From contig CAVZJV010000014.1 in NCBI GenBank assembly GCA_963775685.1, forward strand, positions 1,344,001-1,408,000: a stretch of DNA of 64,000 bases, written 5' to 3'. The translations under genes were made by a program, and so were the position numbers. Below the pieces are notes generated by a model that searched no databases, was not told where the DNA came from, and worked only from the letters and a program-made list of their open reading frames with translations. Numbering within the stretch: position 1 is the first letter of the stretch; every line of letters starts with the position of its first letter. Source of the DNA: Candidatus Bathyarchaeota archaeon (GTDB taxonomy: Archaea; Thermoproteota; Bathyarchaeia; Bathyarchaeales; Bathycorpusculaceae). Positions 35,894 to 53,171 of this stretch are shown here, one piece after another.

Positions 35894-36927
35894 CAGAATA
35901 CAAAATATCCCTAATTCCAGGCGACGGCATCGGACCAGAATTAACCGAAGCCACCCTAAAAGTCCTATACTCAGTTCAGAAAAAATTCGGCCTAAAACTA
36001 AAAATCATCGATGCTCCAGCAGGAGACATCGCACTTGAAACGCTTGGAGCCGCTCTCCCAGCAGACACTGTGGAAAAAATCAAAGATTCCCACGTCTGCC
36101 TGAAAGGTCCAGTTGGCGAATCTGCAGCAGCCGTCATAGTTAAACTCCGAATCATGTTTGACCTCTACGCTAACCTGCGCCCCCTCAAAGCCTACCCTAA
36201 CGTCAAAGTCGCCCATCCAGACATCGACATGTACTTTGTCCGCGAAAATACTGAGGACGTTTACAAGGGTTTAGAATTCACAATAGGCAACGACACCACA
36301 CTTTGCCTTCGAGTTATCACACGCAAGAATTGCGAACGTATTGCCAAAAAAGCATTCGAAATCGCACGTCTACGTAACGGCAAAAAGAAAGTCACCGCCA
36401 TCCACAAAGCCAACGTCATGCGCGTAACCGATGGCTTATTTGCCAGCGTCTGCCGCGAAACCGCAAAACAGTATCCAGACATCGCGTTTAACGAACTCTA
36501 CGTTGACGCAGCATCAATGCGATTAATCAAGGAACCAGAAATATTCGATGTGTTCTGCACTTGCAACATGTTCGGCGACATACTCAGCGATGAAGCCGCA
36601 CAGCAAATCGGCGGCTTAGGCATGGCCCCAGGCGCAAACATAGGCGACAACTTCGGTCTCTTTGAACCTATCCACGGCTCCGCACCAAACAGAGCAGGAA
36701 AACACACAGCCAATCCAATCTCCATGATACTCTCCGCTAAAATGATGCTAGAGTGGTTAGGAGAAAAATATGGCGACAAGAAATGCTTACAAGCAGGTGC
36801 AGCCATAGAGAAAGGAGTAATATACGCTTTAAGTAATGGTCAATCTGTTCCAGACTGCGGCGGCAAAACCACGACTGTTGGGATGGCGGAAGCTATTGCT
36901 GAGGCGTTAACCGTTAAAAGTGGCTGA
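35890..36927 (+). CDS. leuB: 3-isopropylmalate dehydrogenase
   Basis: GDGIGPE, RENTED, NMFGDILSD, EPIHGSAP; operon context. Confidence 0.88.
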   Translation: MTEYKISLIPGDGIGPELTEATLKVLYSVQKKFGLKLKIIDAPAGDIALETLGAALPADTVEKIKDSHVCLKGPVGESAAAVIVKLRIMFDLYANLRPLKAYPNVKVAHPDIDMYFVRENTEDVYKGLEFTIGNDTTLCLRVITRKNCERIAKKAFEIARLRNGKKKVTAIHKANVMRVTDGLFASVCRETAKQYPDIAFNELYVDAASMRLIKEPEIFDVFCTCNMFGDILSDEAAQQIGGLGMAPGANIGDNFGLFEPIHGSAPNRAGKHTANPISMILSAKMMLEWLGEKYGDKKCLQAGAAIEKGVIYALSNGQSVPDCGGKTTTVGMAEAIAEALTVKSG

Positions 36928-38461
36928 AAGCATGACCTCAAATAAAGCACTTACCCATATCCGCATTTTAGATACAACCTTAAGAGATGGGGAACAAACC
37001 CCCGGAGTTTCTTTAACAGCTGACGACAAAATTGAGATTGCAGGCCAACTAAGCAAACTAGGCGTTGATGTTATAGAAGCTGGGTTTCCAAGCTCATCTG
37101 AAGGCGAAAAAAAAGTCGTTAAAGACATCGCCAAACTGGGCTTGACCTCGGAAATTTGCGCATTAGCCCGAGCAACAAAGGGTGACATCGATGCAGCCCT
37201 TTCCTGCGACGTTGATTTAATCCATGTTTTCATACCAACCTCACCAGTTCAGATGCAATATGCCGTCAACTTGACCCCCGAACAAGTATTAGCTTCAGCA
37301 GTGGACTCAATTGAATATGTTAAAAAACAAGGCGTAAAATGCGAGTTTTCACCCATGGACGCCACCCGCAGCGAATTGCAGTTCTTAAAAAAAGTCTGCA
37401 AAGCCGCCCAAGACGCAGGCATGGACACCCTAAACGTTCCCGACACCGTCGGTATCATGATTCCCAAAACCACCGCCAAACTAATCGAAGATCTAAAAAC
37501 CGTCGTCACAGTCCCCATAAGCATACACTGCCACGACGACTTCGGTTTGGCAGTTGCAAACTCGCTTGCTGCAGTTGAGGCAGGTGCCGCCCAAGTTCAC
37601 GTTGCTGTTAACGGCTTAGGCGAACGCGCAGGCAACGCTTCACTTGAAGAAGTTGTGATGGCGCTGGAAATTATTTACAAGTATAAAACAGGCGTCAACA
37701 CCCGATTGCTTTACAGCACTTCACGAATGGTTGCTTCCTTAACAGGCATTACTGTTCAGGCTAACAAGGCAATTGTCGGCGAAAACGCGTTTGCCCACGA
37801 ATCGGGCATTCATACACGCGGTGTAACTGAGAAACCATTAACCTTCGAACCCATAAACCCAGAATTGGTCGGTCGTACAAGGAAACTTGTGGCAGGTAAA
37901 CTGGCAGGAACGCGAGGTATCAAAGCTGAACTCGAAGAAATAGGCATCCACCCCACTGAAGAGCAAATCAAAGAAATCGTTCAGCGCGTCAAAGATTTAG
38001 GCGACAAAGGCAAAATGGTGACAGACGCTGATTTGATAGCATTAACATCAGCTGTTATGGGCGAAGTTATAGGGGAAGAAAAAATCGTTGACCTCTGCGA
38101 CATGGCAGTAGTTACAGGCATCAAAGTCATTCCCACCGCTTCCGTTCGCTTAGTTTTAAATGGAAAAGAATACGTTGCTGCTGAAACAGGCGTGGGACCA
38201 GTAGATGCTGTTCTAAAAGCAATCCAAAAATTAACCAGCAGTATAGAAAACATCAGACTAAGCGAATACCGCCTTGAGGCCATAACAGGAGGTTCAAACG
38301 CCGTTGCTGAAGTTGTTATAAAAGTAGAAGATGAAAAAGGCAACATTGTCTCAGCACGAGCAGCCAGAGAAGACATCGTAATGGCAAGCGTCGAAGCAAT
38401 GATAAACGGTATAAACAAACTCTTGCTTAAAAACCACAATAAGCAGGGAAACAAGAAGTGA
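36920..38461 (+). CDS. leuA: 2-isopropylmalate synthase
   Basis: [26 protein letters not shown], regulatory domain; located in the leuCDB operon. Confidence 0.85.
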   Translation: MAESMTSNKALTHIRILDTTLRDGEQTPGVSLTADDKIEIAGQLSKLGVDVIEAGFPSSSEGEKKVVKDIAKLGLTSEICALARATKGDIDAALSCDVDLIHVFIPTSPVQMQYAVNLTPEQVLASAVDSIEYVKKQGVKCEFSPMDATRSELQFLKKVCKAAQDAGMDTLNVPDTVGIMIPKTTAKLIEDLKTVVTVPISIHCHDDFGLAVANSLAAVEAGAAQVHVAVNGLGERAGNASLEEVVMALEIIYKYKTGVNTRLLYSTSRMVASLTGITVQANKAIVGENAFAHESGIHTRGVTEKPLTFEPINPELVGRTRKLVAGKLAGTRGIKAELEEIGIHPTEEQIKEIVQRVKDLGDKGKMVTDADLIALTSAVMGEVIGEEKIVDLCDMAVVTGIKVIPTASVRLVLNGKEYVAAETGVGPVDAVLKAIQKLTSSIENIRLSEYRLEAITGGSNAVAEVVIKVEDEKGNIVSARAAREDIVMASVEAMINGINKLLLKNHNKQGNKK

Positions 38462-39273
38462 CAACCGTAGCCTTCCAAGGCGAACCGGGCGCATATAGCG
38501 AATCGGCAGTATACCAGTTCTTTGGCTCAAAAGTTCAAGTTAAACCATGCATGGACTTCCGAGACGTTTTCGAGAGTGTAAAGAAGCATGAAGTTCAAGC
38601 TGGTATGGTACCAGTCGAGAATTCCCTTGAAGGCAGCGTCAATCAAAACTACGACTTATTCTTCAATTATGACCTTAAAGTTTTCGGCGAAGTAATAGTA
38701 AAAATAGCACATTGCCTAATCGTCAACCCTGGAACAAACATAGACCAAATCAGATTAGTGTACTCCCATCCGCAAGCTTTAGCGCAATGCCGAAGTTACT
38801 TGGAAAAATCAAAGTGGGAAATTATCCCAACCTACGACACTGCTGGAAGTGTAAAAATAATCAAGGAACAAAAGCTCATAAACGCCGCAGCCATAGCTAG
38901 CGAGAGAGCAGCCGAAATCTACAGCATGGAAATCCTTGCCAAAGACATTGCAGATAACAAAGAAAACTTCACCCGTTTCTTTGTCTTATCCAAAGAAGAT
39001 TCGGCTCCAACTGGAAAGGATAAAACCTCAGTTATCTTCTCAGCAAAACATGAGCCTGGCTCGCTCTACCATGCACTGGGAGAATTCGCAAAAAGAAAAA
39101 TCAATCTAACCAGAATCGAATCAAGACCAACCAAGAAAACTGCATGGGAATACAACTTTTACCTTGATTTTGAAGGACATAGAACTGAGCCTAAATGCGA
39201 TGAAGCCCTAAAAGCTCTTGAGAAATATGCGATTTTCGTCAAAATCTTGGGCTCATATCCTAAAGCTGTTTAG
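38458..39273 (+). CDS. pheA: Prephenate dehydratase
   Basis: FQGEPGAYS, ENSLEGSV, SHPQALAQC, NFTRF, IESRP ACT domain. Confidence 0.95.
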   Translation: MTTVAFQGEPGAYSESAVYQFFGSKVQVKPCMDFRDVFESVKKHEVQAGMVPVENSLEGSVNQNYDLFFNYDLKVFGEVIVKIAHCLIVNPGTNIDQIRLVYSHPQALAQCRSYLEKSKWEIIPTYDTAGSVKIIKEQKLINAAAIASERAAEIYSMEILAKDIADNKENFTRFFVLSKEDSAPTGKDKTSVIFSAKHEPGSLYHALGEFAKRKINLTRIESRPTKKTAWEYNFYLDFEGHRTEPKCDEALKALEKYAIFVKILGSYPKAV

Positions 39274-41084: not shown

Positions 41085-41957
41085 TTATTTTTCTGTGGAT
41101 TCCAGCATTTTATACATGGTTTCATAGGATTCGGCAAAGTCGCAGTCGAATTCTTTAAGCTTCTTTTTTAGCCGCTCCATTCGGTTGACGATTGCTTTCG
41201 TGTCTTTGTTTTTAATTAAGGTGAGCAGTTCTTGGGCTTTAGCCATGAAGGTATCTTCGATTTTGTCCAATTCCTGCAGGTTCGTTTGTACGGCAGCGTA
41301 GAGATCGGGGGTTTCCATCGCCGTTGCTTCTGCCAGCGTGAAGAGCATTCGGTAGGTGGTGCCTGCTACTTTTTTGGTTTCGTGCAAGTTTTTCTGTTCC
41401 AGCAAGGTTTCGCATGCTACTAAGCCTAAAAAGTGTGGCAGTCCCAAAACTACTGACATTAATTCATCATGCTTCTTGGGAGTCATAATGAAAACGTGTG
41501 CTTCTTCCTTCTCGAGCAACTGCTTGAATTTTTCCGCAAACTCATGTTCTTTCGCATTCGTTGGAGTCAAGACATATGCCTTGTGTTTGACGCCGTTACT
41601 TCCCGGACCAAAAACAGGGTGCGTACCCAACACCGTTGCTTCTTTGATGTATTGGTGCATGGTGTTAACGGGTGTTTCCTTTATCGAGGCTATGTCAATG
41701 ACAACCTGTCCTTTATGCAATACTGGGCTGATTGTTTTAACGACCTCTTCGATGGCGTTTATGGATACACAAAGGTAAATTTGGTCGGCCTCTTGGACGG
41801 CTTCTTGAAAGTTCGTGGTTAAATCAACAAGTAAGTCTTTCAGATTTTCGAGTTTCTCTTTTTTTCTATCCGCTAAAATTACATCGTAATCTTTTGAGAG
41901 GAAAAATTTGGCGAACCAAACGCCCATTTTCCCCGCGCCGATTACGGCAACCCTCAT
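41085..41957 (-). CDS. tyrA: Prephenate dehydrogenase
   Basis: GAGKMG Rossmann motif, DIASIK, THPVFGP, HDELMSVVLGLPH. Confidence 0.93.
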   Translation of the reverse strand: MRVAVIGAGKMGVWFAKFFLSKDYDVILADRKKEKLENLKDLLVDLTTNFQEAVQEADQIYLCVSINAIEEVVKTISPVLHKGQVVIDIASIKETPVNTMHQYIKEATVLGTHPVFGPGSNGVKHKAYVLTPTNAKEHEFAEKFKQLLEKEEAHVFIMTPKKHDELMSVVLGLPHFLGLVACETLLEQKNLHETKKVAGTTYRMLFTLAEATAMETPDLYAAVQTNLQELDKIEDTFMAKAQELLTLIKNKDTKAIVNRMERLKKKLKEFDCDFAESYETMYKMLESTEK

Positions 41958-43033
41958 TTATTGACCTCGCAGATTTTATTCAGCCCTGTCTCGATTTGGT
42001 CGTCTGGAGCGGTTAGAGAAATGCGAAAGTGTTCAGGGTAGTTACCAAATGATGTGCCTGGAGCAACAGCAACGCCTTTGTCAAGTAGGTCTAGTGTGAA
42101 CTTTTCGCCGTCTAAACCTTCGAGCTTAGGAAACACATAAAATGGCGCGTCGGGTTTAGTGAATTTGAATCCTGCGGCGGAGAGTTTGGTACAGGCTAGG
42201 TCTGCGCGTTGTTTGTATTTTGCTTTGATGGCAGATGCAATTTGCTTGTGAAGTTCTAAGCCTTTAAGGGCGGCGTCCTGAATGAAGACTGGAATGTTGT
42301 TGATGGTGATTTGGTTGAGTTTGGTTATGTTATCTATGACCATTTTGTTTGCTACCAGGTAGCCGATGCGCCAACCAGTCATGGTGAAGGTCTTTGAGAA
42401 ACCGTTGGAGAGGATATGTTTGCATTCACCGTCGTAGTCGAGTATGCTTTTGGTTTTCACAAAGCTGATTGCTCCATAGACTTCGTCGGAGAGGATAGTA
42501 ACTCCTTTCTGGTTAGCTAATTCGACGACGCCGTCGAGAGTTTTGGAGTCCATGACTTTGCTTGTAGGATTGTTTGGGTTGTTGAGAATAATCATTTTTG
42601 TGTCTTTGTCAATTAAGCTCTCAAGCTTGTCGAGGTCAATTTTCCAACCTTCTGCCATTTCCGTCGGCAGCAGCTTGGTTTTCGCGCCAAGGCTCTTTGC
42701 GATTAAATCGTAAGCTGTCCAGTATGGCGTGGGGATGATAACGTTACCTCCGTTTTTGAGCATCAAAAACATCGTGGAGAATATTCCCCATTTAGAACCT
42801 GGCGTTATCACGACGTTTTCTGCTTCAACGCCGTGTACTTCAGCGATTTTCTGCCGTAGCCTAAGCTCACCATAAGAAGAGGCATACTTAGTTTTGCCTG
42901 CCTTCATTGAAGCGTATGCTGCTTCGACGATTTCAGGCGGCGTAGCCATATCTGGGTCACCAAGGTTTAGTCGAATGATTTTTTTTCCTTCACTTTCCAG
43001 TTTAAGGGCTTTCTCGTTTATCTCATAGAGCAT
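41954..43033 (-). CDS. Class I/II PLP-dependent aminotransferase (probable aromatic aminotransferase)
   Basis: NNPNNPT, DEVY, FSKTFTMTGWRIGY; ATG at 43033; operon context. Confidence 0.9.
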   Translation of the reverse strand: MLYEINEKALKLESEGKKIIRLNLGDPDMATPPEIVEAAYASMKAGKTKYASSYGELRLRQKIAEVHGVEAENVVITPGSKWGIFSTMFLMLKNGGNVIIPTPYWTAYDLIAKSLGAKTKLLPTEMAEGWKIDLDKLESLIDKDTKMIILNNPNNPTSKVMDSKTLDGVVELANQKGVTILSDEVYGAISFVKTKSILDYDGECKHILSNGFSKTFTMTGWRIGYLVANKMVIDNITKLNQITINNIPVFIQDAALKGLELHKQIASAIKAKYKQRADLACTKLSAAGFKFTKPDAPFYVFPKLEGLDGEKFTLDLLDKGVAVAPGTSFGNYPEHFRISLTAPDDQIETGLNKICEVNK

Positions 43034-43061
43034 ACAGTTTGGACTCTCCGTTAGGAGCGCT

Positions 43062-43322
43062 TTATTCTTGAACGGCAATGCACATATTAACTATTTCGCG
43101 GTAAACCGCTTCTACTTGACTAGAATTAAGACCTAATTGGGAGGTTTTGTCTTTTACGCGCTTGTAAACATCATTTTCTCTAGACTTATCTCGAATGGGT
43201 TTACCCTGTTTTTTCTTGGCGGCCCCGATTGCTTTGCAAATCTTTACCCGTTCGCAGAGGGCAATTAGAATTTGGTTGTCGATTTCATCAACCTGTTTTC
43301 TTAGCAAGGGGATTTCGTTCAT
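43062..43322 (-). CDS. aroQ: Chorismate mutase (AroQ type)
   Basis: LRKQVDEID...ER...IGAAK...IRDKSRE. Confidence 0.9.
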   Translation of the reverse strand: MNEIPLLRKQVDEIDNQILIALCERVKICKAIGAAKKKQGKPIRDKSRENDVYKRVKDKTSQLGLNSSQVEAVYREIVNMCIAVQE

Positions 43323-43324
43323 GG

Positions 43325-44431
43325 TTAGTGCTCCTTGAGGACTTTTGGTATGTACCCAGCGCGGATGAGGTGGTCAGCTAAGGTTATGGCGGTTGCTGCT
43401 TCGATGGCGAGCACAGCTTTTGGAACCACACAAGGGTCGTGTCTACCTTTAACGCTTAGAGCGGAATTTTCCATCGTGCACATGTTAACGGTTTTCTGTT
43501 CCTTGGAAATGGAGGGTGTGGGTTTTATCGCTACTCTGATCAGGATTGGCATTCCGCTTGACAATCCGCCCAAGATGCCGCCTGCGTTCTCGGTTGAAGT
43601 GGCAACCTTGCCTTTTTTGATAAGGAAGGCGTCGTTGTTCTCTGACCCCCGCAACTTCGCAGCGTCAAAGCCAGCACCGAACTCGACACCTTTCACTGCA
43701 GGGACAGCAAACATCGCCTTTGCTAAATCTGCATCCAATGAGTCAAACGACGGCTCACCAATTCCAACAGGCATGTTGAGCGCTGCACATTCCACTATAC
43801 CGCCTAAACTGTCCCCTTCTTTTTTAGCTTCAACAATGGCTTCCTCCATCTTTCCTGCGCAAACTAAGTCAGGGCACCGAGTTGCAGCTAAATATCGATT
43901 TTTGCGGATTTCCGAAGTTCTAAACTTTCTATCAGTCTTGACGTTACCGATGGCTAAGGTGTATGCCAAAACATCAATGTTGTATCTTCCGAGCAGTTTT
44001 TTGGCTATTGTGCCAGCCATTATGAGTGCAACTGTGACTCTTCCTGAGAAGCGCCCTCCGCCACGGTGGTCGTTAAAGCCTCCGTATTTAATTCGCGCCG
44101 GATAATCAGAGTGCCCAGGTCTTGGCAAATCCTTTATTGCCTCATAATCGCTTGGCTGAGTTTCCTTATTCTCCACCATCAAGGCGATTGGAGCCCCAGT
44201 GGTGAATCCGTTGAAAAATCCACTTAGGATTTTGGCAACGTCTTTCTCGACTCGCTCAGAAACAATCTTGGACTCCGCTGGAATTCTGCGATCAAGGTCC
44301 TCCTGAAAATCAGCTTCCGAAAGCGGCAAGCCTGCTGGGCAGCCATCCACAACTACTCCGATTACTTTGCCATGGCTCTCCCCAAACGTGGCAACTGTGA
44401 ATTCTTTACCTATCGAATTTCCCGCCAACAA
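43325..44431 (-). CDS. aroC: Chorismate synthase
   Basis: TFGESHG, PRPGHSD, KGVEFG, GRHDPC. Confidence 0.96.
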   Translation of the reverse strand: MLAGNSIGKEFTVATFGESHGKVIGVVVDGCPAGLPLSEADFQEDLDRRIPAESKIVSERVEKDVAKILSGFFNGFTTGAPIALMVENKETQPSDYEAIKDLPRPGHSDYPARIKYGGFNDHRGGGRFSGRVTVALIMAGTIAKKLLGRYNIDVLAYTLAIGNVKTDRKFRTSEIRKNRYLAATRCPDLVCAGKMEEAIVEAKKEGDSLGGIVECAALNMPVGIGEPSFDSLDADLAKAMFAVPAVKGVEFGAGFDAAKLRGSENNDAFLIKKGKVATSTENAGGILGGLSSGMPILIRVAIKPTPSISKEQKTVNMCTMENSALSVKGRHDPCVVPKAVLAIEAATAITLADHLIRAGYIPKVLKEH

Positions 44432-45701
44432 CGTTAGCTCCTATTTGTCTTAGATGAGTGAAGAACTGCGGATAAGACTTTCTGACGCACTCTGCGTTTT
44501 GAATTGTGGTTTCTCCTTCGGCGCCTAAAGCGGCGATTGTGCATGCCATGGCGATTCGATGGTCGTTGTGTGGATCGATGGTTACTCCATGCAAGCGGTT
44601 GCTGCCCTCGATGAGTAAGCCGTCGTTTTCTAAGCCGATTTGAGCGCCCATCTTTGAGAGTTCAGCAAATAACGATTGGAGCCTATCTGACTCCTTGAAC
44701 CTAAGCCTTTGTGCGCCGAAAATGTGAGAAGTGCCTTTTGCGTAGCATGCGAGAGCGGCGATGGCTGGAACAAGGTCAGGAATGTTTTTGGCATCTACTT
44801 CTACGGGTGTAAGTGGAGTTCCTGAACCTTCAATTTCAACGTTGTCCACGCAGACTTTTCCGTTGACGCCCATGTGCTTTAAGGTGCCTATAATCGCTTT
44901 GTCTCCCTGAACGGTCTCGTAGTCAAGGTTGCTAATTTGAACATTCGAGGTAGTTATTGCTGCAGCGGCTAAGAGAAAAGCAGCGGAGGAGAAATCGCCT
45001 GGAACTCTGCCATCTTGGGGTGTGTAGGTTTGGTTCGCTGGGATATGAATGTGGTTTTCATGGGCAGGCACCCTAATTCCATGGTGAACAAGCACTGCCT
45101 CGGTCATTTTAACGTAATCTGCAGATTCCAACGGCGAAGTCAGCATTATTTCCGTGTCCACTTCGGCCATTGGACAAGCAAACATCAAGCCAGAAATAAA
45201 CTGTGAACTCACATCGCCCGCAACGGAAGTCTCGCCGCCAACAATGCCGCCGCCCTCCACAAAAACCGCGTCTTTGTCACCAAGTTTTCCAACGCGCACT
45301 TTGGCGCCGAGTTCTTTGAGGCTAGCTAAAAGTGGTTCCACAGGTCGCTTCTCAATAGAGCCCCTAAACACCAAAGTAGAAGAACCATCTGCCAGCGCAG
45401 CTACGGGAATCATGAAACGCAATGTTGCCCCTGACTCTCTGCAGTCAATTGGTTCTTTTGCGCTCTTAAGCGCTGTGCCTTCGATTGTCCAGCAACCTTC
45501 CGCAGTCTTGACTTTTGCCCCTAAAGCAGTGACTGCCCCAAGCGTGGCTTCGGTATCATCTGACAAAAGAGGATTAGAAACTTTTGAAACTCCATGGGAA
45601 AGTGCAGCGGCTATTACCATTCGTTGAGTATAAGACTTAGATGACGGCGCACAAACTTGCCCGCTTAACTTTTCAGTTTTTTTAATTGTTACATCTGTCA
45701 T
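44406..45701 (-). CDS. aroA: EPSP synthase
   Basis: SKSYTQR, ESGATLRF, SSQFISG, KESDR, DHRIAM, KSYPQF. Confidence 0.96.
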   Translation of the reverse strand: MTDVTIKKTEKLSGQVCAPSSKSYTQRMVIAAALSHGVSKVSNPLLSDDTEATLGAVTALGAKVKTAEGCWTIEGTALKSAKEPIDCRESGATLRFMIPVAALADGSSTLVFRGSIEKRPVEPLLASLKELGAKVRVGKLGDKDAVFVEGGGIVGGETSVAGDVSSQFISGLMFACPMAEVDTEIMLTSPLESADYVKMTEAVLVHHGIRVPAHENHIHIPANQTYTPQDGRVPGDFSSAAFLLAAAAITTSNVQISNLDYETVQGDKAIIGTLKHMGVNGKVCVDNVEIEGSGTPLTPVEVDAKNIPDLVPAIAALACYAKGTSHIFGAQRLRFKESDRLQSLFAELSKMGAQIGLENDGLLIEGSNRLHGVTIDPHNDHRIAMACTIAALGAEGETTIQNAECVRKSYPQFFTHLRQIGANVVGGKFDR

Positions 45702-45703
45702 TG

Positions 45704-46576
45704 TTAGAGCACCTTTGCTTTTTCACTGTTCAACTGTGCCTGAATTATTTCGCCGTCATACCTTTCCAAAGCAGCCTTCACTGCATCTAACTTGTCAGTT
45801 GGAACTACTGCGGAAACAGCAGGTCCTTTGCCGCAAAGCCCAGTCGCTACGGCTCCAGCAGCCAACGCATCTATCGCGATTGTGGTGTTGAGGTTTGAGG
45901 CTGAAGAGTAGATTAAACCGTTAAGCGTTAATGCCTCCCAAACTTTTCCTTCCAAAGCCTTGTCGAATGCGATTTGTACGAGCGGTTTAACAGTTTTGAG
46001 CCTGTTCACATTTGAGTCAGCCGTGTAGGCTTTTTGGGGTGGAACATGAAACAACACTGTTAAATCCTTAGGTAAGGGTAGCTGTTTGATGATTTCACGT
46101 TTGAAGTTATCGGTAATTACTATGCCGCCAAAATAGGATGCACACGCATCATCAAAAGCGCCAGTAACTGTGACCTTTGAATCAAAAGCAGCATCGACAC
46201 CCAACTTTACAATTTCCAAATCATCAAGAGGTTTGCCAAGTGCCGCCGTTGTTGCAAGTGCGGTGGCGTTTGCTGCTACGCTGCTGCTTTTAAGTCCTTT
46301 AGCGATTGGGATGTTTGATAGGGTTTTTATTTTTGCGCCAAAACTTTTGTCTAAACCAAACCTTTGCAGAACTCTTGCCGCGGTTTTTTCTATTAGGAGC
46401 GTGCTTTCTTTTGGGTCTGAAACTATCTCAGCCCTAATAACGCCTAGTTCATCCATTAAATTAACTTCAGCTCTGGTCCACAAATCAACCCCAAACGCTG
46501 CACCCTTACCCAGCGCAATCGCGTTCACGATGGTTGCAGCCCCATGAGCAATCGCTACACCTCTACCCGTTGCCAC
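45704..46576 (-). CDS. aroK: Archaeal shikimate kinase (GHMP family)
   Basis: ATIVNAIA, IPIAKGLKSSS, VTGAFDDA. Confidence 0.93.
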   Translation of the reverse strand: MATGRGVAIAHGAATIVNAIALGKGAAFGVDLWTRAEVNLMDELGVIRAEIVSDPKESTLLIEKTAARVLQRFGLDKSFGAKIKTLSNIPIAKGLKSSSVAANATALATTAALGKPLDDLEIVKLGVDAAFDSKVTVTGAFDDACASYFGGIVITDNFKREIIKQLPLPKDLTVLFHVPPQKAYTADSNVNRLKTVKPLVQIAFDKALEGKVWEALTLNGLIYSSASNLNTTIAIDALAAGAVATGLCGKGPAVSAVVPTDKLDAVKAALERYDGEIIQAQLNSEKAKVL

Positions 46577-46579
46577 AGT

Positions 46580-47437
46580 TTACACCTTCATCAAATAATT
46601 AAGCGCCGCCTGCCTCATAACTTCAACTGGAGCAGACTTACCTGTCCAAAGTTCAAACGACGCTGCACCTTGATAAATCAACATCTCAACCCCGCTGACC
46701 ACCTTAGCTCCCGCAGCTTTCGCCTCATTAACAAGTTTGGTCTCAAGCGGATTGTATACTATATCCATCACAGACAAATCCGGTCTTAAAAGTTTAGGAT
46801 TTACAAGGCTTTCGTCTGCTTTTGGTTTCATCCCAATTGAAGTAGCATTTATGAGAATGTCAGAGTCTTGGAGGTTCTGTTGGATTTCTTTTGGTGAAAG
46901 GGAACCTGCAACTATTTTTTTGTTCGCAGTCTTTTCAAGCAGTCTGGCTAATCCTTGAGCTTGTTTTACGGTTCGGTTCAGGACCGCGAGTTCATCGGCT
47001 TCTTTAGCCATCGTGTACGCTATGGCTCTTGCAGCTCCGCCTGCACCCAGCAACAGAACCTTTCTGCCCTTCGGCTCCACTCCATTTTCTCTTAGAGCTT
47101 TTAGGGCGCCTACGCCATCTGTGTTGAAGCCGAAAAGTTTGCTATCCTTATTTAGGATTGTATTGACCGAATTTATGATTTGAGCAGATAGGTCTGTTCG
47201 GTCTAAATACTTCAACACTGTACTTTTATGCGGCATAGTTACGTTTAAGCCCCGTAGGTTTAGGGCGCGCATGCCATTTACTGCGTTTTCCACTGCATTT
47301 AGCTTTACTTTGAAAGCTAAAAATGCATAGTCAAGGTTGAGAGCGTTAAAGGCTGCATTGTGTATAATGGGGCTCAAGGTATGCTCTATTGGGTCACCGA
47401 TGACTCCGCAAACCCTAGTTTTCCCCGTAATAGGCAT
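46580..47437 (-). CDS. aroE: Shikimate dehydrogenase
   Basis: GDPIEHTLSP, NVTMPHK, NTDG, GAGGAARA, DIVYNP. Confidence 0.96.
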   Translation of the reverse strand: MPITGKTRVCGVIGDPIEHTLSPIIHNAAFNALNLDYAFLAFKVKLNAVENAVNGMRALNLRGLNVTMPHKSTVLKYLDRTDLSAQIINSVNTILNKDSKLFGFNTDGVGALKALRENGVEPKGRKVLLLGAGGAARAIAYTMAKEADELAVLNRTVKQAQGLARLLEKTANKKIVAGSLSPKEIQQNLQDSDILINATSIGMKPKADESLVNPKLLRPDLSVMDIVYNPLETKLVNEAKAAGAKVVSGVEMLIYQGAASFELWTGKSAPVEVMRQAALNYLMKV

Positions 47438-48120
47438 TATTTTATCCCCAAAAGTCCATAAGCAGTGCGCATTTCGGTTATGCTCATCTGCCCAGCCGCG
47501 GTTTCACTGTCAGGCTCAACCGAGGCGAAAGTGAAGAAAGCGCCAAATGCAGGTGAAAGCAACCTTGAGATTTTGCCTTGATCGCCCATGCAGAAGCAAA
47601 CCAGCTTTGCCTTGGCTGAAGCAAAGGAAACAAAGTTCAGAATAGGCAGGTTGTCTTCAACTTGTTTTGCTGTGAGCACGATTTTGCAGACGCTCGCCCC
47701 GCTGGCAATCTCCTCGTCAAGGATCTTTTCCATGGTAGAAACTGCTAAAAGTCCATCATAATTATGATAAGAAACGATGGGTTTTGCCCCTAGAGCTCGT
47801 AGTTTTCCAATTGTTTCGTCCCGTTTAGGGCTGGAAAAATCAACATCCACATATTCGAAGCCATTTTTGGCCGCATCAATAAGGGTCTGTTGACGTTCAA
47901 TTTCGGTTCCTGAAAAGTAACCTTTTTCGTTTTTGAGTTTGTTTGTAGCGATAAAGGGCAGTTTTGTGCTTTTGGCGAAGTCTTGTAGGTTTCGTGATTC
48001 TTCGAGGTAATCGAGACGAACTTCTACGAGGTCTGCTTGGGAACTCTCTGCCTTCTCAATGAGCTTTAGCGCTTCCGCCATGTTTTTTGGGAGAATCGAA
48101 ACACAGATTCTCACAGTCAC
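47437..48120 (-). CDS. aroD: Type I 3-dehydroquinate dehydratase
   Basis: EVRLDY, IVSYHNY, MGDQGKISR, TAAGQ. Confidence 0.92.
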   Translation of the reverse strand: MTVRICVSILPKNMAEALKLIEKAESSQADLVEVRLDYLEESRNLQDFAKSTKLPFIATNKLKNEKGYFSGTEIERQQTLIDAAKNGFEYVDVDFSSPKRDETIGKLRALGAKPIVSYHNYDGLLAVSTMEKILDEEIASGASVCKIVLTAKQVEDNLPILNFVSFASAKAKLVCFCMGDQGKISRLLSPAFGAFFTFASVEPDSETAAGQMSITEMRTAYGLLGIK

Positions 48121-49157
48121 TTTTCAATCACCGTTTCTTCAGGCACAGATATGCCGAAGTGTCTTCCTCCCTTCGCAGCTAAATGCACAAGAACTTCATC
48201 GTTGGGTTTGAGTTCGGTAACTGGTTTTGAGCCTTTAGACGTGACTATGCGTATGGTTTCTGCATTCTGCAAGATAGTTTTAATTTTGGTGCCGTCGGCC
48301 TCGGCTTCGATGAGGATGAGTGGACGGAACTCGATTTTGGATCTACCCACGTTTGTGATTCGGACATTACCTTCTCGACTAACGATTAGAACTTCGTCAC
48401 CAGCTTTGAGTTCAGAGAGGTAGCGTGTACCCTGAATGGAGGTTAAGGTGTACTGAGATGCTGGTCCAGCGTTCACTCGGAAAGGCCTGGATTGCACGTA
48501 GGGGTTCTCGTTAACTTCAGCCTCAACAAGGAAGAACCCTGCGGATTGGCATCCGACAAGCATCCCTTCACCTGGAACCATCAAATCAACAGTGTCTACA
48601 CAGACGCGTGCACCTGAGCCGATGGGTTTAATGGACAAGATTTTGGCTGTGGTAATCGACATTTTGGGCATTTGATTCTTGACGAGCTTGATGGTTTTTT
48701 CCAGCTCAGCTACGTTTCTGGTCTTTAGCAAAACACCGTCTGTGCCCAATTCAAGAGCTTCCAAAACCAACTTAGCATCCTCAGCCGTGGTCACCTCTGC
48801 GATTAGGGTGCTTTTTCCTCTGCCTTTGGCTATGAGGTTTTCAAGCGGAATCACTCGCCAATCTTGACAGTTTATTATGACATAGTCAACGCCAAGTTCA
48901 GCGGCTTTGGCTGCCCTGTTTTCGTCTTCTTTACCTTGGATTATTACTTTTAAGGCTGTTTTTTTGCCCTCTACCTTTAGCTGGGCAATTTTTTTCTCGC
49001 TCAAGTCAGTGAGAAAAATAATTTCCATTTTGCCTTGGCGGTTGCTGGCTTGGTCGCCATCCAAGATCGCGTCTGCGTTTTCATGGGCAAGGCTAAGTAA
49101 ACCTTCCTTTTCTTGAGCGGAAGCATTTTGTGGAATTTCGAGCCAGAGTTCTTTCAA
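48117..49157 (-). CDS. 3-dehydroquinate synthase II (AroB')
   Basis: WRVIPLENLIA, RVCVDT, RPFRVNAG, LQNAETIR, GRHFG. Confidence 0.94.
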   Translation of the reverse strand: MKELWLEIPQNASAQEKEGLLSLAHENADAILDGDQASNRQGKMEIIFLTDLSEKKIAQLKVEGKKTALKVIIQGKEDENRAAKAAELGVDYVIINCQDWRVIPLENLIAKGRGKSTLIAEVTTAEDAKLVLEALELGTDGVLLKTRNVAELEKTIKLVKNQMPKMSITTAKILSIKPIGSGARVCVDTVDLMVPGEGMLVGCQSAGFFLVEAEVNENPYVQSRPFRVNAGPASQYTLTSIQGTRYLSELKAGDEVLIVSREGNVRITNVGRSKIEFRPLILIEAEADGTKIKTILQNAETIRIVTSKGSKPVTELKPNDEVLVHLAAKGGRHFGISVPEETVIEK

Positions 49158-49945
49158 TATTTTTCACCAAAAATCTTTAGCGCTTGCTCAACAGATGCAC
49201 CTTTGTGGACAATGGCAGAGAGCGCTCTTGAAATTTGTGTTGGATTGTCGCATTGGAACATGTTACGTCCAATGGAAAGCCCTGCTGCACCTGCTTCCAA
49301 GGCGTCGCTGGTGGTTTGAAGCACTTCCTCTAGGGAATTGCATTTTGGTCCACCTGCAATAACAACTGGGATTGGGCAACTTTCGATGACTGCTTTGAAA
49401 GTTTCGATGCTTCCTGTGTAGTTTGTTTTGATTATGTCTGCGCCAAGTTCTGCGCCGATTCTCGCTGCATGCGCCACCAATTCGGGTGAATGTTCGTTTG
49501 GGATTTTTGGTCCACGCGGGTACATCATCGCTAAGAGAGGAACACCAAAGGCTTCGCATTCTTCGGCGACTTTGCCTAGGTTTTGTAGCATTTTATCTTC
49601 GTCTTGAGCGCCGACGTTGACATGAACGGATACTGCGTCTGCGCCGATGCGTATGGCTTCTTGCACGCTGCATACTTGGACCTTGCCGTTTACGTTGGGG
49701 CTAAGGTTTGACATGCCAGATAACATTACGATTAAGCCTGCGTCTCCGGTGTCGACTCGTTTGGCGATGCCTTTGTGGACAAGGATGGCATCAACTCCAC
49801 CTTTCACAAGCTGGTTGGTTATGGTTTGCATGTTAGTTATGCCTTGGATGGGCCCAACTGTTACACCATGATCCATAGGTACAATTACTGTGCGGTTGTC
49901 TTGCTGCATGATTTTTTTTAGTCTGCGGGTTTTGCCTTCATTCAT
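49154..49945 (-). CDS. 2-amino-3,7-dideoxy-D-threo-hept-6-ulosonate (ADH) synthase (AroA', DhnA-type aldolase)
   Basis: PMDHG, AMMYPRG, GADIIKT, IAGGPK, GRNMFQ; adjacent to AroB'. Confidence 0.92.
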   Translation of the reverse strand: MNEGKTRRLKKIMQQDNRTVIVPMDHGVTVGPIQGITNMQTITNQLVKGGVDAILVHKGIAKRVDTGDAGLIVMLSGMSNLSPNVNGKVQVCSVQEAIRIGADAVSVHVNVGAQDEDKMLQNLGKVAEECEAFGVPLLAMMYPRGPKIPNEHSPELVAHAARIGAELGADIIKTNYTGSIETFKAVIESCPIPVVIAGGPKCNSLEEVLQTTSDALEAGAAGLSIGRNMFQCDNPTQISRALSAIVHKGASVEQALKIFGEKY

Positions 49946-49957
49946 GTCTTTTCCACT

Positions 49958-51202
49958 CTAATGTTGTTTAAGTGAGTTTTTAATTAACTTTAATGCTTTC
50001 TCTTTCTCATTCCAATCTACAAACAGCAAAATGCTCGACGTAATAGTTAGGATGCCAGAGATGTTTATGCCGTTAAGGCGTAAATCCTCACTGATTTTGC
50101 CGATGATGCCATGCGTTTCCTCCAAGCCCACACCGCTGGTTTTGATGAAGACAAGGTCCTTTTTAACTGCCATAGCTATGGTTTCTTCGTTGCCGATAGT
50201 TATATTGTGGATTTGGTTGAAGAGGACATCGATATTTTTCACCTGCGGCACATAGAGAATGATTGAGTTTGTGTTCATAGACATGCCCAATAACATCGAG
50301 TTTTCCTTAACTCTCTCAACCATCTCGGTGATAACTTTAGTATTAGCAGACATACCGTTTCCGATAACGGTGATTTCCGCCACAGGGGTAGGATGAGCAA
50401 TTTCCGCGTCAAGTTCGGTGCCTAATCCACCGGTGATGATTGTCCCTGCACGACTCAAATCGCCATGAGCATTGCTGATGACTTTAACATCGATATCTTT
50501 TGGCTTGTATTTGAGAGCTTTACTGTGAATAAATTTTGCACCTGAATCTGCTAAGCCAACAAGCGTATTTACGTTGATTGTTGGGAGAAGTTTGGGCGAA
50601 GCAATTATTTTCGGGTCGCCAGACATTATGCCATCTGCATTCGTTACCAGCACAACTTGGTTTGCATTTAAGCCCTGTGCCAGCAAGAACGCAGTAGTGT
50701 CGCTTCCGCCTCTGCCAAGGGTAGTAATTTTGCCATCTTTCGTTTTGCCCACGAATCCAGCTATGACCGGTACGGTTCCTGCCTCAACAAGCGGAAGGAT
50801 GCATTCCTTAATATTTTTCTCGCATTCCTTGACAAGGGGGTTGGCGTTCTGGAACGAGTCATCAGTGATTATTGGCCACTTACTGTCCATGGGGTCAAAG
50901 TAACAAGCATCAACACCATTGTTCCGAAGAGCAGTCGCAAAGATTCGTACACTTGTGCGTTCACCCATCGACAAAATGTCATCTAACTCCTGTTTAGCTA
51001 ATTTTCCGTTCGAAGTGTTCTTTGCGGTAATCAATAGCACATCGGTTGTTTTCCCCATGGCTGAAACTGCTACAGCGATTTTTGTACCTTTTTTGGCTTC
51101 ATTCACCACTGCCTTGACCGCTTTTAGAAGTCTTTCGTGATCAGATAGGCTGGAGCCGCCAAATTTAACGACAATGGTTTGGTTAGAGGAATGTTTTGCC
51201 AT
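49958..51202 (-). CDS. Aspartate kinase
   Basis: VVKFGGSS, VSAMGKTTD, TTLGRGGSDTTA, C-terminal ACT-like domains; ATG at 51202 (alternative 51217). Confidence 0.9.
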   Translation of the reverse strand: MAKHSSNQTIVVKFGGSSLSDHERLLKAVKAVVNEAKKGTKIAVAVSAMGKTTDVLLITAKNTSNGKLAKQELDDILSMGERTSVRIFATALRNNGVDACYFDPMDSKWPIITDDSFQNANPLVKECEKNIKECILPLVEAGTVPVIAGFVGKTKDGKITTLGRGGSDTTAFLLAQGLNANQVVLVTNADGIMSGDPKIIASPKLLPTINVNTLVGLADSGAKFIHSKALKYKPKDIDVKVISNAHGDLSRAGTIITGGLGTELDAEIAHPTPVAEITVIGNGMSANTKVITEMVERVKENSMLLGMSMNTNSIILYVPQVKNIDVLFNQIHNITIGNEETIAMAVKKDLVFIKTSGVGLEETHGIIGKISEDLRLNGINISGILTITSSILLFVDWNEKEKALKLIKNSLKQH

Positions 51203-51222
51203 ATGTTTTACACCCATGTTTT

Positions 51223-51260
51223 GCCCAGAACTTTTCTTAAAAATTTTTTCAGTTCTGGGC
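51223..51260 (-). promoter_or_regulatory. Perfect 10-bp hairpin GCCCAGAACT/AGTTCTGGGC directly after the leader stop codon
   Basis: Inverted repeat 51223-51232 / 51251-51260; the 18-nt loop contains AAAAAATTTTT. Confidence 0.75.
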
Positions 51261-51347
51261 TTAAGGAAAATGGTAATAATAAAAGCAGTAATCGAAGCTC
51301 TGGAACGGCGCCGCATTGCCTGAGACTATGTTTTTTGCATTGAACAT
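51261..51347 (-). CDS. Phe/Tyr-rich leader peptide of the aromatic amino-acid operon (MFNAKNIVSGNAAPFQSFDYCFYYYHFP*)
   Basis: 28 codons with 5 Phe and 4 Tyr, 8 of them in the last 14; lies between a BRE/TATA-like element and the first operon gene. Confidence 0.8.
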   Translation of the reverse strand: MFNAKNIVSGNAAPFQSFDYCFYYYHFP

Positions 51348-51384
51348 TGTGCTTCGAAACCTGTTGAATGCTTCACCTCACAAA

Positions 51385-51400
51385 AAATATAAGCGTTTCG
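51385..51400 (-). promoter_or_regulatory. BRE-TATA promoter candidate for the leader/aro operon
   Basis: CGAAACGCTTATATTT about 40 nt upstream of the leader ATG. Confidence 0.55.
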
Positions 51401-51515
51401 GATTTGGACTCACCAAATATAGGATCACTCTATCTCTTGAAAAAGCCAATAGCCAATAAATTCAAAATCTCAACAACTATGATTATGTTATTTTTTGTAA
51501 TTTAATTGAAGTAGC

Positions 51516-53171
51516 TTAACTTTGAGGGACGGCTTCAGTGCTCTTTTCACCCGCGGAGGATACAATGGCTGGAGGCAAGATTTTTCTTTGGATAAGGGCT
51601 TTTACTGCTTCTGAAAGAACGTTACACGCCTGTTTTCTTACCTCTGCGGAGTTGTCTACTTCCTTGTTTGCAATGGACGTCTCTAAATTCTGCATCTTAC
51701 CAATATTTGCCCGTTTGTTTCTCTCATAATCTTCATGGAGTTTTTGTAGTTCGGTACCTGAATTCTGCTCTGCTAACGCCAAGCTCCTTCTTGCATCATC
51801 TAATTTCTTGATAATTTCTATTTGTCTTTCTTCTTCGGCTACTTTCTTGAGGAAGTGAAGGCTACTTATTTTGGTTTGCCGAATTTGAGCAAGCTCTTCT
51901 TCAATTTACATACATTCTTGGTAAAGAAATCAATAGCAGAGTCTCTTTTTTCTTTGAGCTCGCTCGTCTGCGCTTCATACTCAGCGTCAATGTCCCCAAC
52001 TTTTCCTGAATCAATAGAAGAATTACCAACTGCCAAAGCCAACCTCTTCTCAGCAGCATTCAGTTTCTGAGTAAGCTCGGCTTGTTTTTGTTCTTTTGCC
52101 CTTTTCTTGAGTGGATGCCGATAACTCGTTTTTATCTGCTCCACCTCGGCAAGTTCTTCTTTTAAAATGTGCACGTTTCTGAACAAGTAATCTATAGCGC
52201 TCTTTCCTCTAACTACAAAGTCTTTAGTTTGGGCAGCATATCCAGCGTCAATCTCGCCTAGTAAATATCTATTCTCTACAAGTGTCCTTGCTGAGACTTC
52301 AATTTCTGCTTCGTTTGTCAGTCGCTTGGCTAGTTCATCTTCGATTTCGCTGAAAATGTGGTTACATGCTTCGGTAAAAGTTTCGTCTGACCCTATGACG
52401 TCGCTTGATTCAAAGGATAGAATAATCTGCCTAACGTTAACCATCCAATCGTCAAAGTATTTGCTAACAGGCGACTGCTCAAAGACTTCCCCCCCAAGCA
52501 TTTCTAAATAATTCAAAGTCTCAGCACTAATTGCCTCAATCTTCGCGTTCTGCTCCCCTAAGTCAATGGGCGCTCGGGCTTTCTTGCGGTATTTCTTCTT
52601 CTATCTCTTCAGTGACAATAGATTCTGGTAAGTTAACTGGAATTTCAACTGAAATAACTAAAAGGGGTTCGGGTGCTACAGGTGCTTGAAGTTTTGGAAT
52701 TTCCGCAATCGCTTGAATCTCTTTTGGCGTCTCAACTTTATGTTGGTTTTGGACCATTAAGCTATTAAGTTTTGGAATAATGTCCTCAACTACTATCATC
52801 AAGAGATCGCGGTTTTCGCTTTCATTTAACTCCCAAACTTCTCGACGACCACCCTCAAAGGTTAAAGTGAGGTGCCCTGTGAGGTCGATGTATGCTTGGG
52901 AGGCTTCCTTCAATTTGAATGGAAGCACAGATGTGGAAACCGAAATTGAAGAAAACATCGGCGCCAAATACCTCAGCGACTCAAAAAATTTAGCCACCAA
53001 AACCTTCTCCTCAGACAATAACTTCCCGATCTGCTCAATATCCTCTTCTACAAACGCGAAGGTCTCAGCGATTTCTTGGACACTGATTGACTTTCCGCTT
53101 ACAACATGTGGACTTATGACTAAAGCATCTGCTGGAGATGTTGTTACCGGCACCTGAGTCATGACATTCAA
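51516..53171 (-). pseudogene. Coiled-coil hypothetical protein split into three ORFs by frameshifts
   Basis: Protein-like reading continues across the junctions near 52560 and 51860 in shifted frames. Confidence 0.6.

Follow-up and report, generated by a model that had tools for sequence, protein, structure and literature searches.

Can the pace of a ribosome on a short upstream reading frame set the expression of an archaeal biosynthetic operon, as it does in the leader peptides of bacteria? The question is raised by a 64,000-nucleotide stretch of DNA from Candidatus Bathyarchaeota archaeon (assembly GCA_963775685.1, contig CAVZJV010000014.1, positions 1,344,001 to 1,408,000; hereafter the window), part of a genome of 3.06 Mb. 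On the minus strand of the window, an upstream open reading frame (uORF) rich in Tyr and Phe codons, followed at its stop by a hairpin (P2), precedes an aspartokinase-aro operon. Leader-peptide attenuation is the textbook case of bacterial coupled transcription and translation, and the bacterial aromatic attenuators include pheL/pheA, pheM/pheST and trpL of Escherichia coli. A first-pass annotation, made from the letters of the window alone, had read the uORF as a Phe/Tyr leader peptide with a switchable RNA structure. The conserved, frame-maintained aromatic ORF and its abutting hairpin stand, and the switch proposed with them does not. The observation itself is confirmed, with support well beyond what the reading of a single sequence could give, and the unit is probably a ribosome-mediated, Tyr/Phe-sensing leader (attenuator) of the aspartokinase-aro operon, an archaeal counterpart of the bacterial ones.

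The uORF runs from an ATG at 51347 to a TAA at 51263-51261 and encodes the peptide MFNAKNIVSGNAAPFQSFDYCFYYYHFP, in which Phe or Tyr accounts for 8 of the last 14 residues, exactly as first read. For comparison, a first sample of 27 orthologous leaders was extended by 65 loci from other families and 60 named loci; 145 leaders were usable and 133 of them distinct, drawn from a sample of genomes and not from a census. An aromatic uORF is present in 27 of 27 orthologous leaders of the first sample. Among the distinct leaders, 111 of 133 have an ORF that starts with ATG, is 21-36 codons long and holds 5 or more Phe, Tyr or Trp codons in the last 12, a strong enrichment that bears out the expectation of a conserved, aromatic-rich short ORF in orthologous leaders, and a further 4 of 133 (L062, L079, L080 and L089) have this ORF starting with GTG or TTG. 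The distance from the uORF to the kinase start is 33-77 nt.

The amino-acid bias is concentrated at the end of the ORF. Over the last 12 codons of 96 unique tails, Tyr makes up 34.1%, Phe 27.3% and Trp 1.6% (together 63%), against 3.6, 4.3 and 1.3% (together 9.2%) in the long ORFs of the whole genome. The aromatic frequencies at codons -1 to -8 from the stop are 0.20, 0.81, 0.83, 0.60, 0.93, 0.81, 0.87 and 0.66. Of the tail codons, 65% begin with T and 92% end in C or T, and the other two frames of the tails encode aromatic residues at just 11% and 14%.

The frame is maintained as well. In an alignment of 75 leaders from the family of the window (f1), the uORF span holds 0 stops in frame 0, 52 in frame +1 and 135 in frame +2. 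Within the uORF 90 of 101 gap runs are multiples of 3, and the gaps in the P2 loop and past P2 are mostly of 1-2 nt. The uORF shows a 3-nt periodicity, and its mean identity in f1 is 31% in the N-terminal part vs 57% over the last 13 residues, with the motif S-F-[DEG]-Y-x-F-Y-Y at the amino-acid level. Distant lineages keep the residues with other codons (AGT TTT GGC TAT vs AGC TTC GAT TAC in the window), and UUC and UAC are used in GC-richer lineages, where the aromatic identity stays. Because the frame is kept, the indels are in frame and the residues persist with different codons, the uORF bears the signature of a translated ORF under selection for aromatic codons near its end. What the families share is the composition and the placement with respect to the stop, and no defined sequence; many of the uORFs end in Pro-stop. 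Eight uORF peptides compared with NCBIfam and Pfam at E<=10 matched no family, and Rfam covariance models run over positions 50500-52500 gave nothing near a gathering score, only sub-threshold noise.

Could such a leader be constitutive, setting basal translation, mRNA stability or coupling without sensing anything, with its Tyr and Phe codons selected as a U-tract RNA element? The codon choice is in line with this, for U-ending codons are preferred (TAT is 67% of Tyr codons in the tails vs 43% genome-wide) and TTTT is present in 83 of 96 tails; the search for a switch structure came out negative; and U-tracts are reported to be termination signals in archaea (PMC8716108). A U-rich element, however, needs no start codon, no fixed frame, no in-frame indels and no stop at P2, the aromatic identity is kept where the codons are UUC and UAC, and the association is exclusively with the aromatic operon. 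We consider a non-sensing leader unlikely.

The hairpin P2 is the second constant of the leader. As the first-pass annotation had stated, the arms GCCCAGAACT and AGTTCTGGGC form 10 perfect pairs starting at the first base past the uORF stop, and the 18-nt loop holds A6T5; sequence and fold agree on this, P2 being present in both the minimum free energy and the centroid fold of RNAfold, while the whole 206-nt region is not unusually stable (z -1.05). A helix within 5 nt after the stop and with dG <= -12 kcal/mol occurs in 105 of 107 distinct leaders vs 25 of 800 ordinary gene ends of the window genome. This energy criterion was used in place of an earlier, laxer hairpin rule, which scored 259 of 600 ordinary gene ends and was uninformative. 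Relative to the end of the stop, pairing begins at -3 to +5 in 104 of 105 unique hairpins, and the median z of P2 against dinucleotide shuffles is -2.9. Between families the arms are unrelated, with GCCCAGAAC, GGAGAAACCG, GGGGAAAGGGC, GCCGCGACCG and AGCTTCGAAACC among the examples; they differ wholly, and it is complementarity and not sequence that is kept. Within f1 the arms are almost invariant, the true register has 87.7% of cells paired vs at most 49.3% on sliding, and most of the changes that do occur keep a wobble pair on the sense strand: two A-U pairs become G-U, in 9 and 6 rows, and one C-G pair becomes U-G, in 4. The two arms occur together nowhere else in the genome, so that P2 is not a dispersed repeat. 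On this comparative evidence P2 is an RNA element other than the generic terminator of the organism. In two leaders of family f14 (L078 and L079), the P2 arms are made from the same GCTTCGAA / TTCGAAGC motif as the other helix (P1) of the window's family, which could be a coincidence of the palindromic TTCGAA core or could reflect shared ancestry or helix rearrangement.

Exactly two helices are returned by RNAalifold on the 75 f1 leaders, namely P2 and a 7-bp helix, P1, which had been left out of the first structure model although it is conserved. P1 has 81% of cells paired in its true register vs at most 49% for the whole structure when slid, and in f1 it is well supported by the alignment. 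The P1-type pairings of other families use other sequences. One group of f1 genera has an 11-12-bp helix between uORF codons 3-6 and the S-G-Y-W codons; in the Bathyarchaeum family uORF codons 2-4 pair with (S/G)-Y-F codons; and in several other families a purine-rich Shine-Dalgarno (SD) sequence of the uORF pairs with Phe codons of the CUUCUUC type. Measured against shuffles, the duplex energy gives z<=-2 in 12 of 34 representatives and a negative z in 31 of 34, and a P1 in these other families is plausible.

The whole unit stands at the 5' end of the operon. Each of the 11 genes said to lie downstream of the uORF was verified on the minus strand, by NCBIfam for aspartate kinase, ADH synthase (aroA'), DHQ synthase II (aroB'), aroD, aroE, the archaeal shikimate kinase, aroA, aroC, chorismate mutase and an aminotransferase, and by Pfam for the prephenate dehydrogenase (tyrA). 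The products of the operon are chorismate and Tyr, and pheA lies nearby. The true start of the aspartokinase is the ATG at 51202. Its longest ORF, at 49958-51316 (-), would give 452 aa from an ATG at 51316, but the NCBIfam kinase profile starts only at residue 46-47, so the ORF from 51316 is an artefact; its spurious N-terminal extension of 38 codons overlaps the uORF in another frame and hides it, as had been suspected. In the relatives the open frames of the kinase are 411-456 aa long, and gene callers would mask the leader in the same way. A kinase SD sequence, GGGTG or GGAGG, is kept in the leaders 6-10 nt 5' of the kinase start.

Upstream of the uORF the element resembling a TFIIB recognition element and TATA box (BRE/TATA) is where it had been placed, and it is near-invariant in f1. 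In 28 of 30 representative leaders a TATA-like hexamer precedes the uORF ATG, at a median distance of 45 nt. From the usual archaeal spacing between TATA and start, transcription is predicted to begin at about 51362-51361, with a 5' untranslated region (5'UTR) of about 15 nt. The features of the locus are collected in Table 1.

Table 1. Features of the aromatic leader and its operon, in positions of the window.
Feature	Position	Strand	Remarks
BRE/TATA-like element CCGAAA..TTATATTT	51385..51401	(-)	sequence
P1 5' arm UCGAAGC	51351..51357	(-)	between SD-like AGGU and uORF start codon
uORF, 28 codons + TAA	51261..51347	(-)	N-terminal half variable, C-terminal half Tyr/Phe-rich
CCAGAGCUU, alternative partner of P2 3' arm	51295..51303	(-)	present here, not conserved
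P1 3' arm GCUUCGA	51292..51298	(-)	within S-F-D codons, just 5' of Tyr/Phe run
Aromatic codon block F-D-Y-C-F-Y-Y-Y-H-F-P	51264..51296	(-)	U-rich; TTT and TAT favoured
P2 hairpin	51223..51260	(-)	arms 51260-51251 and 51232-51223, 18-nt loop
T5 run in P2 loop, after A6	51239..51243	(-)	starts 18 nt past uORF stop
SD-like GGGTG of aspartokinase gene	51211..51215	(-)	sequence; conserved in relatives
Operon	41085..51202	(-)	aspartokinase, aroA', aroB', aroD, aroE, aroK, aroA, aroC, chorismate mutase, aminotransferase, tyrA

How far does the arrangement reach? The relatives are metagenome-assembled genomes of Bathyarchaeia, several of the same genus-level group being named Ca. Bathycorpusculum or 'Bathy6', and Ca. 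Bathyarchaeum tardum is a relative at 60% identity; the carriers are uncultured or known from enrichments only. The kinase orthologue was found in 24 of 24 genomes of the same genus, 161 of 401 of the class and 33 of 251 sampled from the phylum. In all lineages examined, including those whose uORF lacks the aromatic run, the gene order is aspartokinase (AK) or AK-asd, then aroA'-aroB'-aroD-aroE-aroK-aroA-aroC. The aromatic leader occurs in most of the sampled families of Bathyarchaeia. Among 16 kinase loci from other classes of the phylum, 7 have a clear aromatic uORF with an abutting hairpin, 5 a weaker one and 4 none; tails of the clear ones read, for example, ..FGYFYFYYFGP, ..FYGFYFYFYFGP and ..FSYFFYYSF.

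Where the aromatic run is missing in Bathyarchaeia, 16 of 18 leaders have another conserved short ORF in the same place, with the pentad pattern G-[DG]-x-[LIV]-F-G-[DG]-x-[LIV]-Y and its Phe and Tyr invariant. This pentad ORF may be a second type of aromatic leader. The leaders that carry it, which stand before AK-asd-aro (L068-L070, L072-L076, L082-L084, L092, L093 and L096-L098), have recurring GGUGA motifs and a longer stretch past the ORF stop.

The pentad ORF also enters a different account, in which the peptide itself acts, either as an arrest peptide sensing free Tyr or Phe in the manner of TnaC or as a small peptide working in trans, for example on the kinase. The conserved amino-acid motif of f1, the Pro-stop at the end of many copies and the existence of another conserved short ORF in lineages without the aromatic run would all suit such an action. 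On the other side, what is kept across families is composition and stop-relative position and no defined sequence, the N-terminal half is free to change, the peptides have no match among curated families, and an element working in cis is indicated by the presence of P1 and by how closely P2 follows the uORF. A peptide-borne activity is thus quite unlikely.

If the peptide is not the agent, the inverted repeats might still act as DNA. They would then be operators for a transcription factor, the P2 loop of f1, GAAAAA-TTTTTAAG, 41 nt 5' of the kinase ATG, would be an internal BRE/TATA, and the uORF would be incidental or a separate tiny gene. The loop does resemble a BRE/TATA and has a spacing like that of the main promoter, and the near-invariance of the arms in f1 and their co-occurrence at this locus alone in the genome are compatible with operators. 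An internal BRE/TATA is nevertheless not general, because the loops of other families are GC-rich and not TATA-like, while their unrelated arms keep complementarity, and because some members of the genus have no T-run. A DNA palindrome is disfavoured, since it would not select the G.U-compatible changes seen on the sense strand at three P2 pairs (9, 6 and 4 rows). With the frame-maintained aromatic ORF also left unexplained, control at the DNA level is very unlikely. The T5 run of the loop, for its part, may serve as an oligo-U signal for termination or pausing, or may belong to an internal promoter of BRE/TATA-like type.

Read as a Tyr/Phe-sensing attenuator, the leader would work as follows. 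Transcription would start about 15 nt upstream of an ORF of 24-29 codons whose second half is taken up by Tyr and Phe codons in a run, most of them UAU and UUU, which are read by wobble, and the speed of the first ribosome through this run would report the supply of charged tRNA-Tyr and tRNA-Phe. P1 and P2 would read out the position of that ribosome. P1, which joins the ribosome-binding region of the uORF to the start of the aromatic block, would form only with no ribosome on the block, and P2, which begins at or inside the stop codon, would melt only with a ribosome at the last 1-2 codons or the stop. Taking the geometry from standard ribosome footprints, a hungry codon in the A site at -4 to -12 would leave the ribosome covering the P1 3' arm with its front edge short of P2, so that P1 would be open and P2 folded. 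Once the A site holds the stop or codon -1 or -2, P2 would be melted at its GC-rich base and P1 would re-form behind the ribosome. Pro-stop is a slow-release context, and E. coli pheL ends likewise; because many of the uORFs end in it, the state with the ribosome at the stop and P2 melted is suggested to be functionally used.

That stalling raises the expression of the operon, and by what route, is our inference. The logic expected of a biosynthetic operon would require either a protective folded P2 or a stalled ribosome that masks U-rich RNA, in the manner of tnaC and Rho, and we favour these options. In the output that we prefer, with low confidence, the folded P2 or the stalled ribosome would shield the leader by limiting the access of a U-tract-dependent termination machinery (intrinsic oligo-U or aCPSF1/FttA) to its U-rich RNA, and unimpeded translation would expose that RNA to premature termination or cleavage.

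The genome offers the parts for such an output. An orthologue of aCPSF1/FttA is encoded in it. A run of T>=5 lies within 60 nt in 41% of 118 convergent-gene flanks, the share being 25% for the opposite strand and 7% inside coding sequence; after gene ends the median offset of such runs is 19.5 nt, and the T5 run of the leader begins 18 nt past the uORF stop. A U4-6 run follows P2 in most other families. Intrinsic-terminator scanning returned 0 sites in the window, a scan for sigma-70 promoters and intrinsic terminators being uninformative for archaea. We know of no experiment that links FttA to any leader ORF. aCPSF1 is reported to bind terminator U-tracts in Methanococcus (PMC8716108), and a further paper (PMC11616081) concerns U-tract-dependent termination by archaeal aCPSF1/FttA. 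The leader resembles such binding sites in that its Tyr and Phe codons are U-rich, and the factor is encoded in the window genome. A second aCPSF1-like frame at C14:716962-718279 (-) of the same genome (G000) falls into two parts, the first match containing 2 TAA stops, and may be a broken paralogue of the termination factor.

Several results weigh against reading the leader as an attenuator. The arrangement has much of what defines one, namely a short ORF between promoter and first gene, enriched cognate codons and conservation of the ORF as coding; mutually exclusive RNA structures were not found, P1 and P2 alone being conserved. None of seven candidate pairings among 33 representative leaders is a conserved antiterminator, anti-sequestor or RBS-sequestering structure (RBS, ribosome-binding site). 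The body of the uORF with the P2 3' arm gives z<-2 in 2 of 33 leaders, the 5'UTR with the P2 5' arm in 4 of 33 and with the P2 3' arm in 0 of 33, and the uORF tail with the P2 5' arm in 4 of 33, both of the fours at or near chance. For the kinase RBS the counts are 2 of 33 with the P2 3' arm, 1 of 33 with the P2 5' arm and 0 of 33 with the aromatic block (median z +0.4). Since the candidate pairings are at or near chance, neither the bacterial terminator/antiterminator scheme nor a mycobacterial RBS-sequestration scheme is supported.

The same reserve extends to the helices and to the distribution of the leader. True covariation within f1 is scant, P1 is weak or undetectable in several families, and 18 of the 133 distinct leaders have no aromatic-run ORF. 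The U-run lies in the P2 loop in f1 and past P2 in other families, and because its placement differs a single mechanism is harder to state. The simplest physical models, in which P2 with a U-run is a terminator blocked by a coupled ribosome or a trailing ribosome pushes RNA polymerase through the T-run, predict more expression when Tyr and Phe are plentiful; they are disfavoured, since it is implausible that an operon for biosynthesis should follow such a reversed logic. No cognate-codon leader was found at the trp operon (C1:16243-22077) or at hisG (C14:1659234-1660079) of the window genome, so leaders of this kind are not a general strategy of the organism. The transcription start, the translation and the 3' ends of the leader are putative.

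The weakest account is the switch of bacterial type proposed in the first-pass annotation, with P2 as terminator and its 3' arm pairing with CCAGAGCUU as antiterminator on ribosome stalling: P2 is real and the 9-bp pairing (8 Watson-Crick and 1 G.U) does exist in the window (-13.8 kcal/mol, z -2.7), but the partner is not conserved even within the genus, other leaders reading CACAGC, CATAGC or CTTAGC there, and the pairing stands out in just the 2 of 33 representative leaders given above (median z -0.18). Beyond this genome, a few close relatives alone have it. CCAGAGCUU would be covered by, or lie next to, a ribosome stalled on the aromatic codons. Hairpin-dependent termination is not the norm of the genome (a stable helix at 25 of 800 gene ends), and in this genus P2 is followed by AAAAC and has its T-run in the loop. 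We give the switch hardly any credence.

Leaders of the same design for other amino acids were sought in the genome of the window by two scans, and nothing convincing was seen for any other amino acid. The first scan masked the aro leader itself, since the spurious kinase extension was counted as a gene. A scan for the architecture (a short ORF, a stable helix abutting its stop and a long ORF starting 25-110 nt downstream) gave 602 candidates, of which the aro leader is the most strongly biased in its amino acids, a feature well outside what chance would give. A pair of identical short ORFs, Leu-rich and 24 codons long, stands at C14:2048082-2048156 (+) and C14:2301030-2301104 (-); a 21-bp hairpin and then a long ORF follow each copy, and the pair is probably part of a repeated element.

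A Tyr/Phe-sensing leader at this locus would have both likeness to and difference from the systems described so far. It shares with pheL, pheM and trpL of E. coli a short 5' ORF with a run of cognate codons in the last dozen codons, often ending in Pro-stop, an RNA hairpin before the first structural gene and a helix that involves the initiation region of the leader itself. It differs in being archaeal, in having no mutually exclusive antiterminator among the structures found and, in f1, a hairpin with no U-tract after it. Its sensor codons lie on the side of the P1 3' arm, where in the bacterial leaders they would be a segment 1 that frees segment 2. Tyr dominates over Phe, and the peptides lie outside the curated leader families. 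Our best reading is that the archaeal leader would differ in architecture from bacterial attenuators.

Other bacterial leaders come close in single respects. In E. coli pyrBI, a coupled ribosome blocks a terminator hairpin, and the regulated variable is the pausing of RNA polymerase at low UTP. Here too the leader ORF has one hairpin, inside it or directly past its end, the folding of which would be set by the proximity of the ribosome; the logic of pyrBI, in contrast, gives high expression with fast translation, which is the wrong direction for Tyr/Phe biosynthesis. E. coli tnaC belongs to a catabolic operon, senses free Trp and has Rho as the termination factor. As with tnaC and Rho, a ribosome held at the end of the leader could mask RNA that a termination factor needs; unlike tnaC, the signal expected here is hungry codons and not the free amino acid. 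In mycobacteria, leaderless poly-Cys short ORFs are reported to attenuate by a stalled ribosome that blocks a structure sequestering the RBS of the next gene (10.1101/834739). The archaeal leader would share with these a 5' short ORF of cognate codons, the stall as signal and a simple design with no terminator/antiterminator pair. It would differ from them in that pairing of its aromatic block with the kinase RBS is at chance, the count being the 0 of 33 given above.

Some neighbouring features are recorded for completeness. Beyond the main BRE/TATA, in the minus-strand region 51402-51515, a second TATA-like element, CCTATATTTGG (about 51425-51415), occurs with an AT-rich stretch and is possibly a second promoter; an 88-aa ORF with no family match ends upstream of it. 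The pheA gene (PDT+ACT) at 38458-39273 (+) is convergent with the aro operon and overlaps by 4 nt the end of a LeuA/homocitrate-synthase-like gene (HMGL-like + LeuA_dimer), the pair spanning 36920-39273 (+). Aragorn found 41 tRNAs in the genome, among them one tRNA-Phe(GAA), and no tRNA-Tyr or tRNA-Trp, a gap that likely reflects intron-containing genes missed by the aragorn settings or an incomplete assembly.

What would such a leader mean for archaea? A full-text literature search, which covered a minority of subscription-journal papers, returned no archaeal leader-peptide attenuator, so that an earlier description is possible; a 2026 cross-domain review of termination has neither 'attenuat' nor 'leader peptide' in its text. 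The aro leader might be the first amino-acid-sensing leader-peptide attenuator in Archaea, old, widespread and free of an antiterminator, in which the position of the ribosome on a U-rich run sets two helices and hence the access of U-tract and aCPSF1/FttA termination; this larger claim we hold tentatively, at somewhat short of an even chance. If it is true, ribosome-sensed regulation exists alongside a eukaryote-like RNA polymerase and a termination factor of the CPSF73 type, and the leader offers a natural cis-element with which coupling, U-tract termination and the access of FttA could be dissected in vivo. It is also a ready regulatory part for archaeal genetics, and it supplies a rule for annotation, since a spurious N-terminal extension conceals the uORF and leads to a wrong call of the kinase start. 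The abundant and barely cultured Bathyarchaeia, for their part, appear to control the synthesis of aromatic amino acids tightly.

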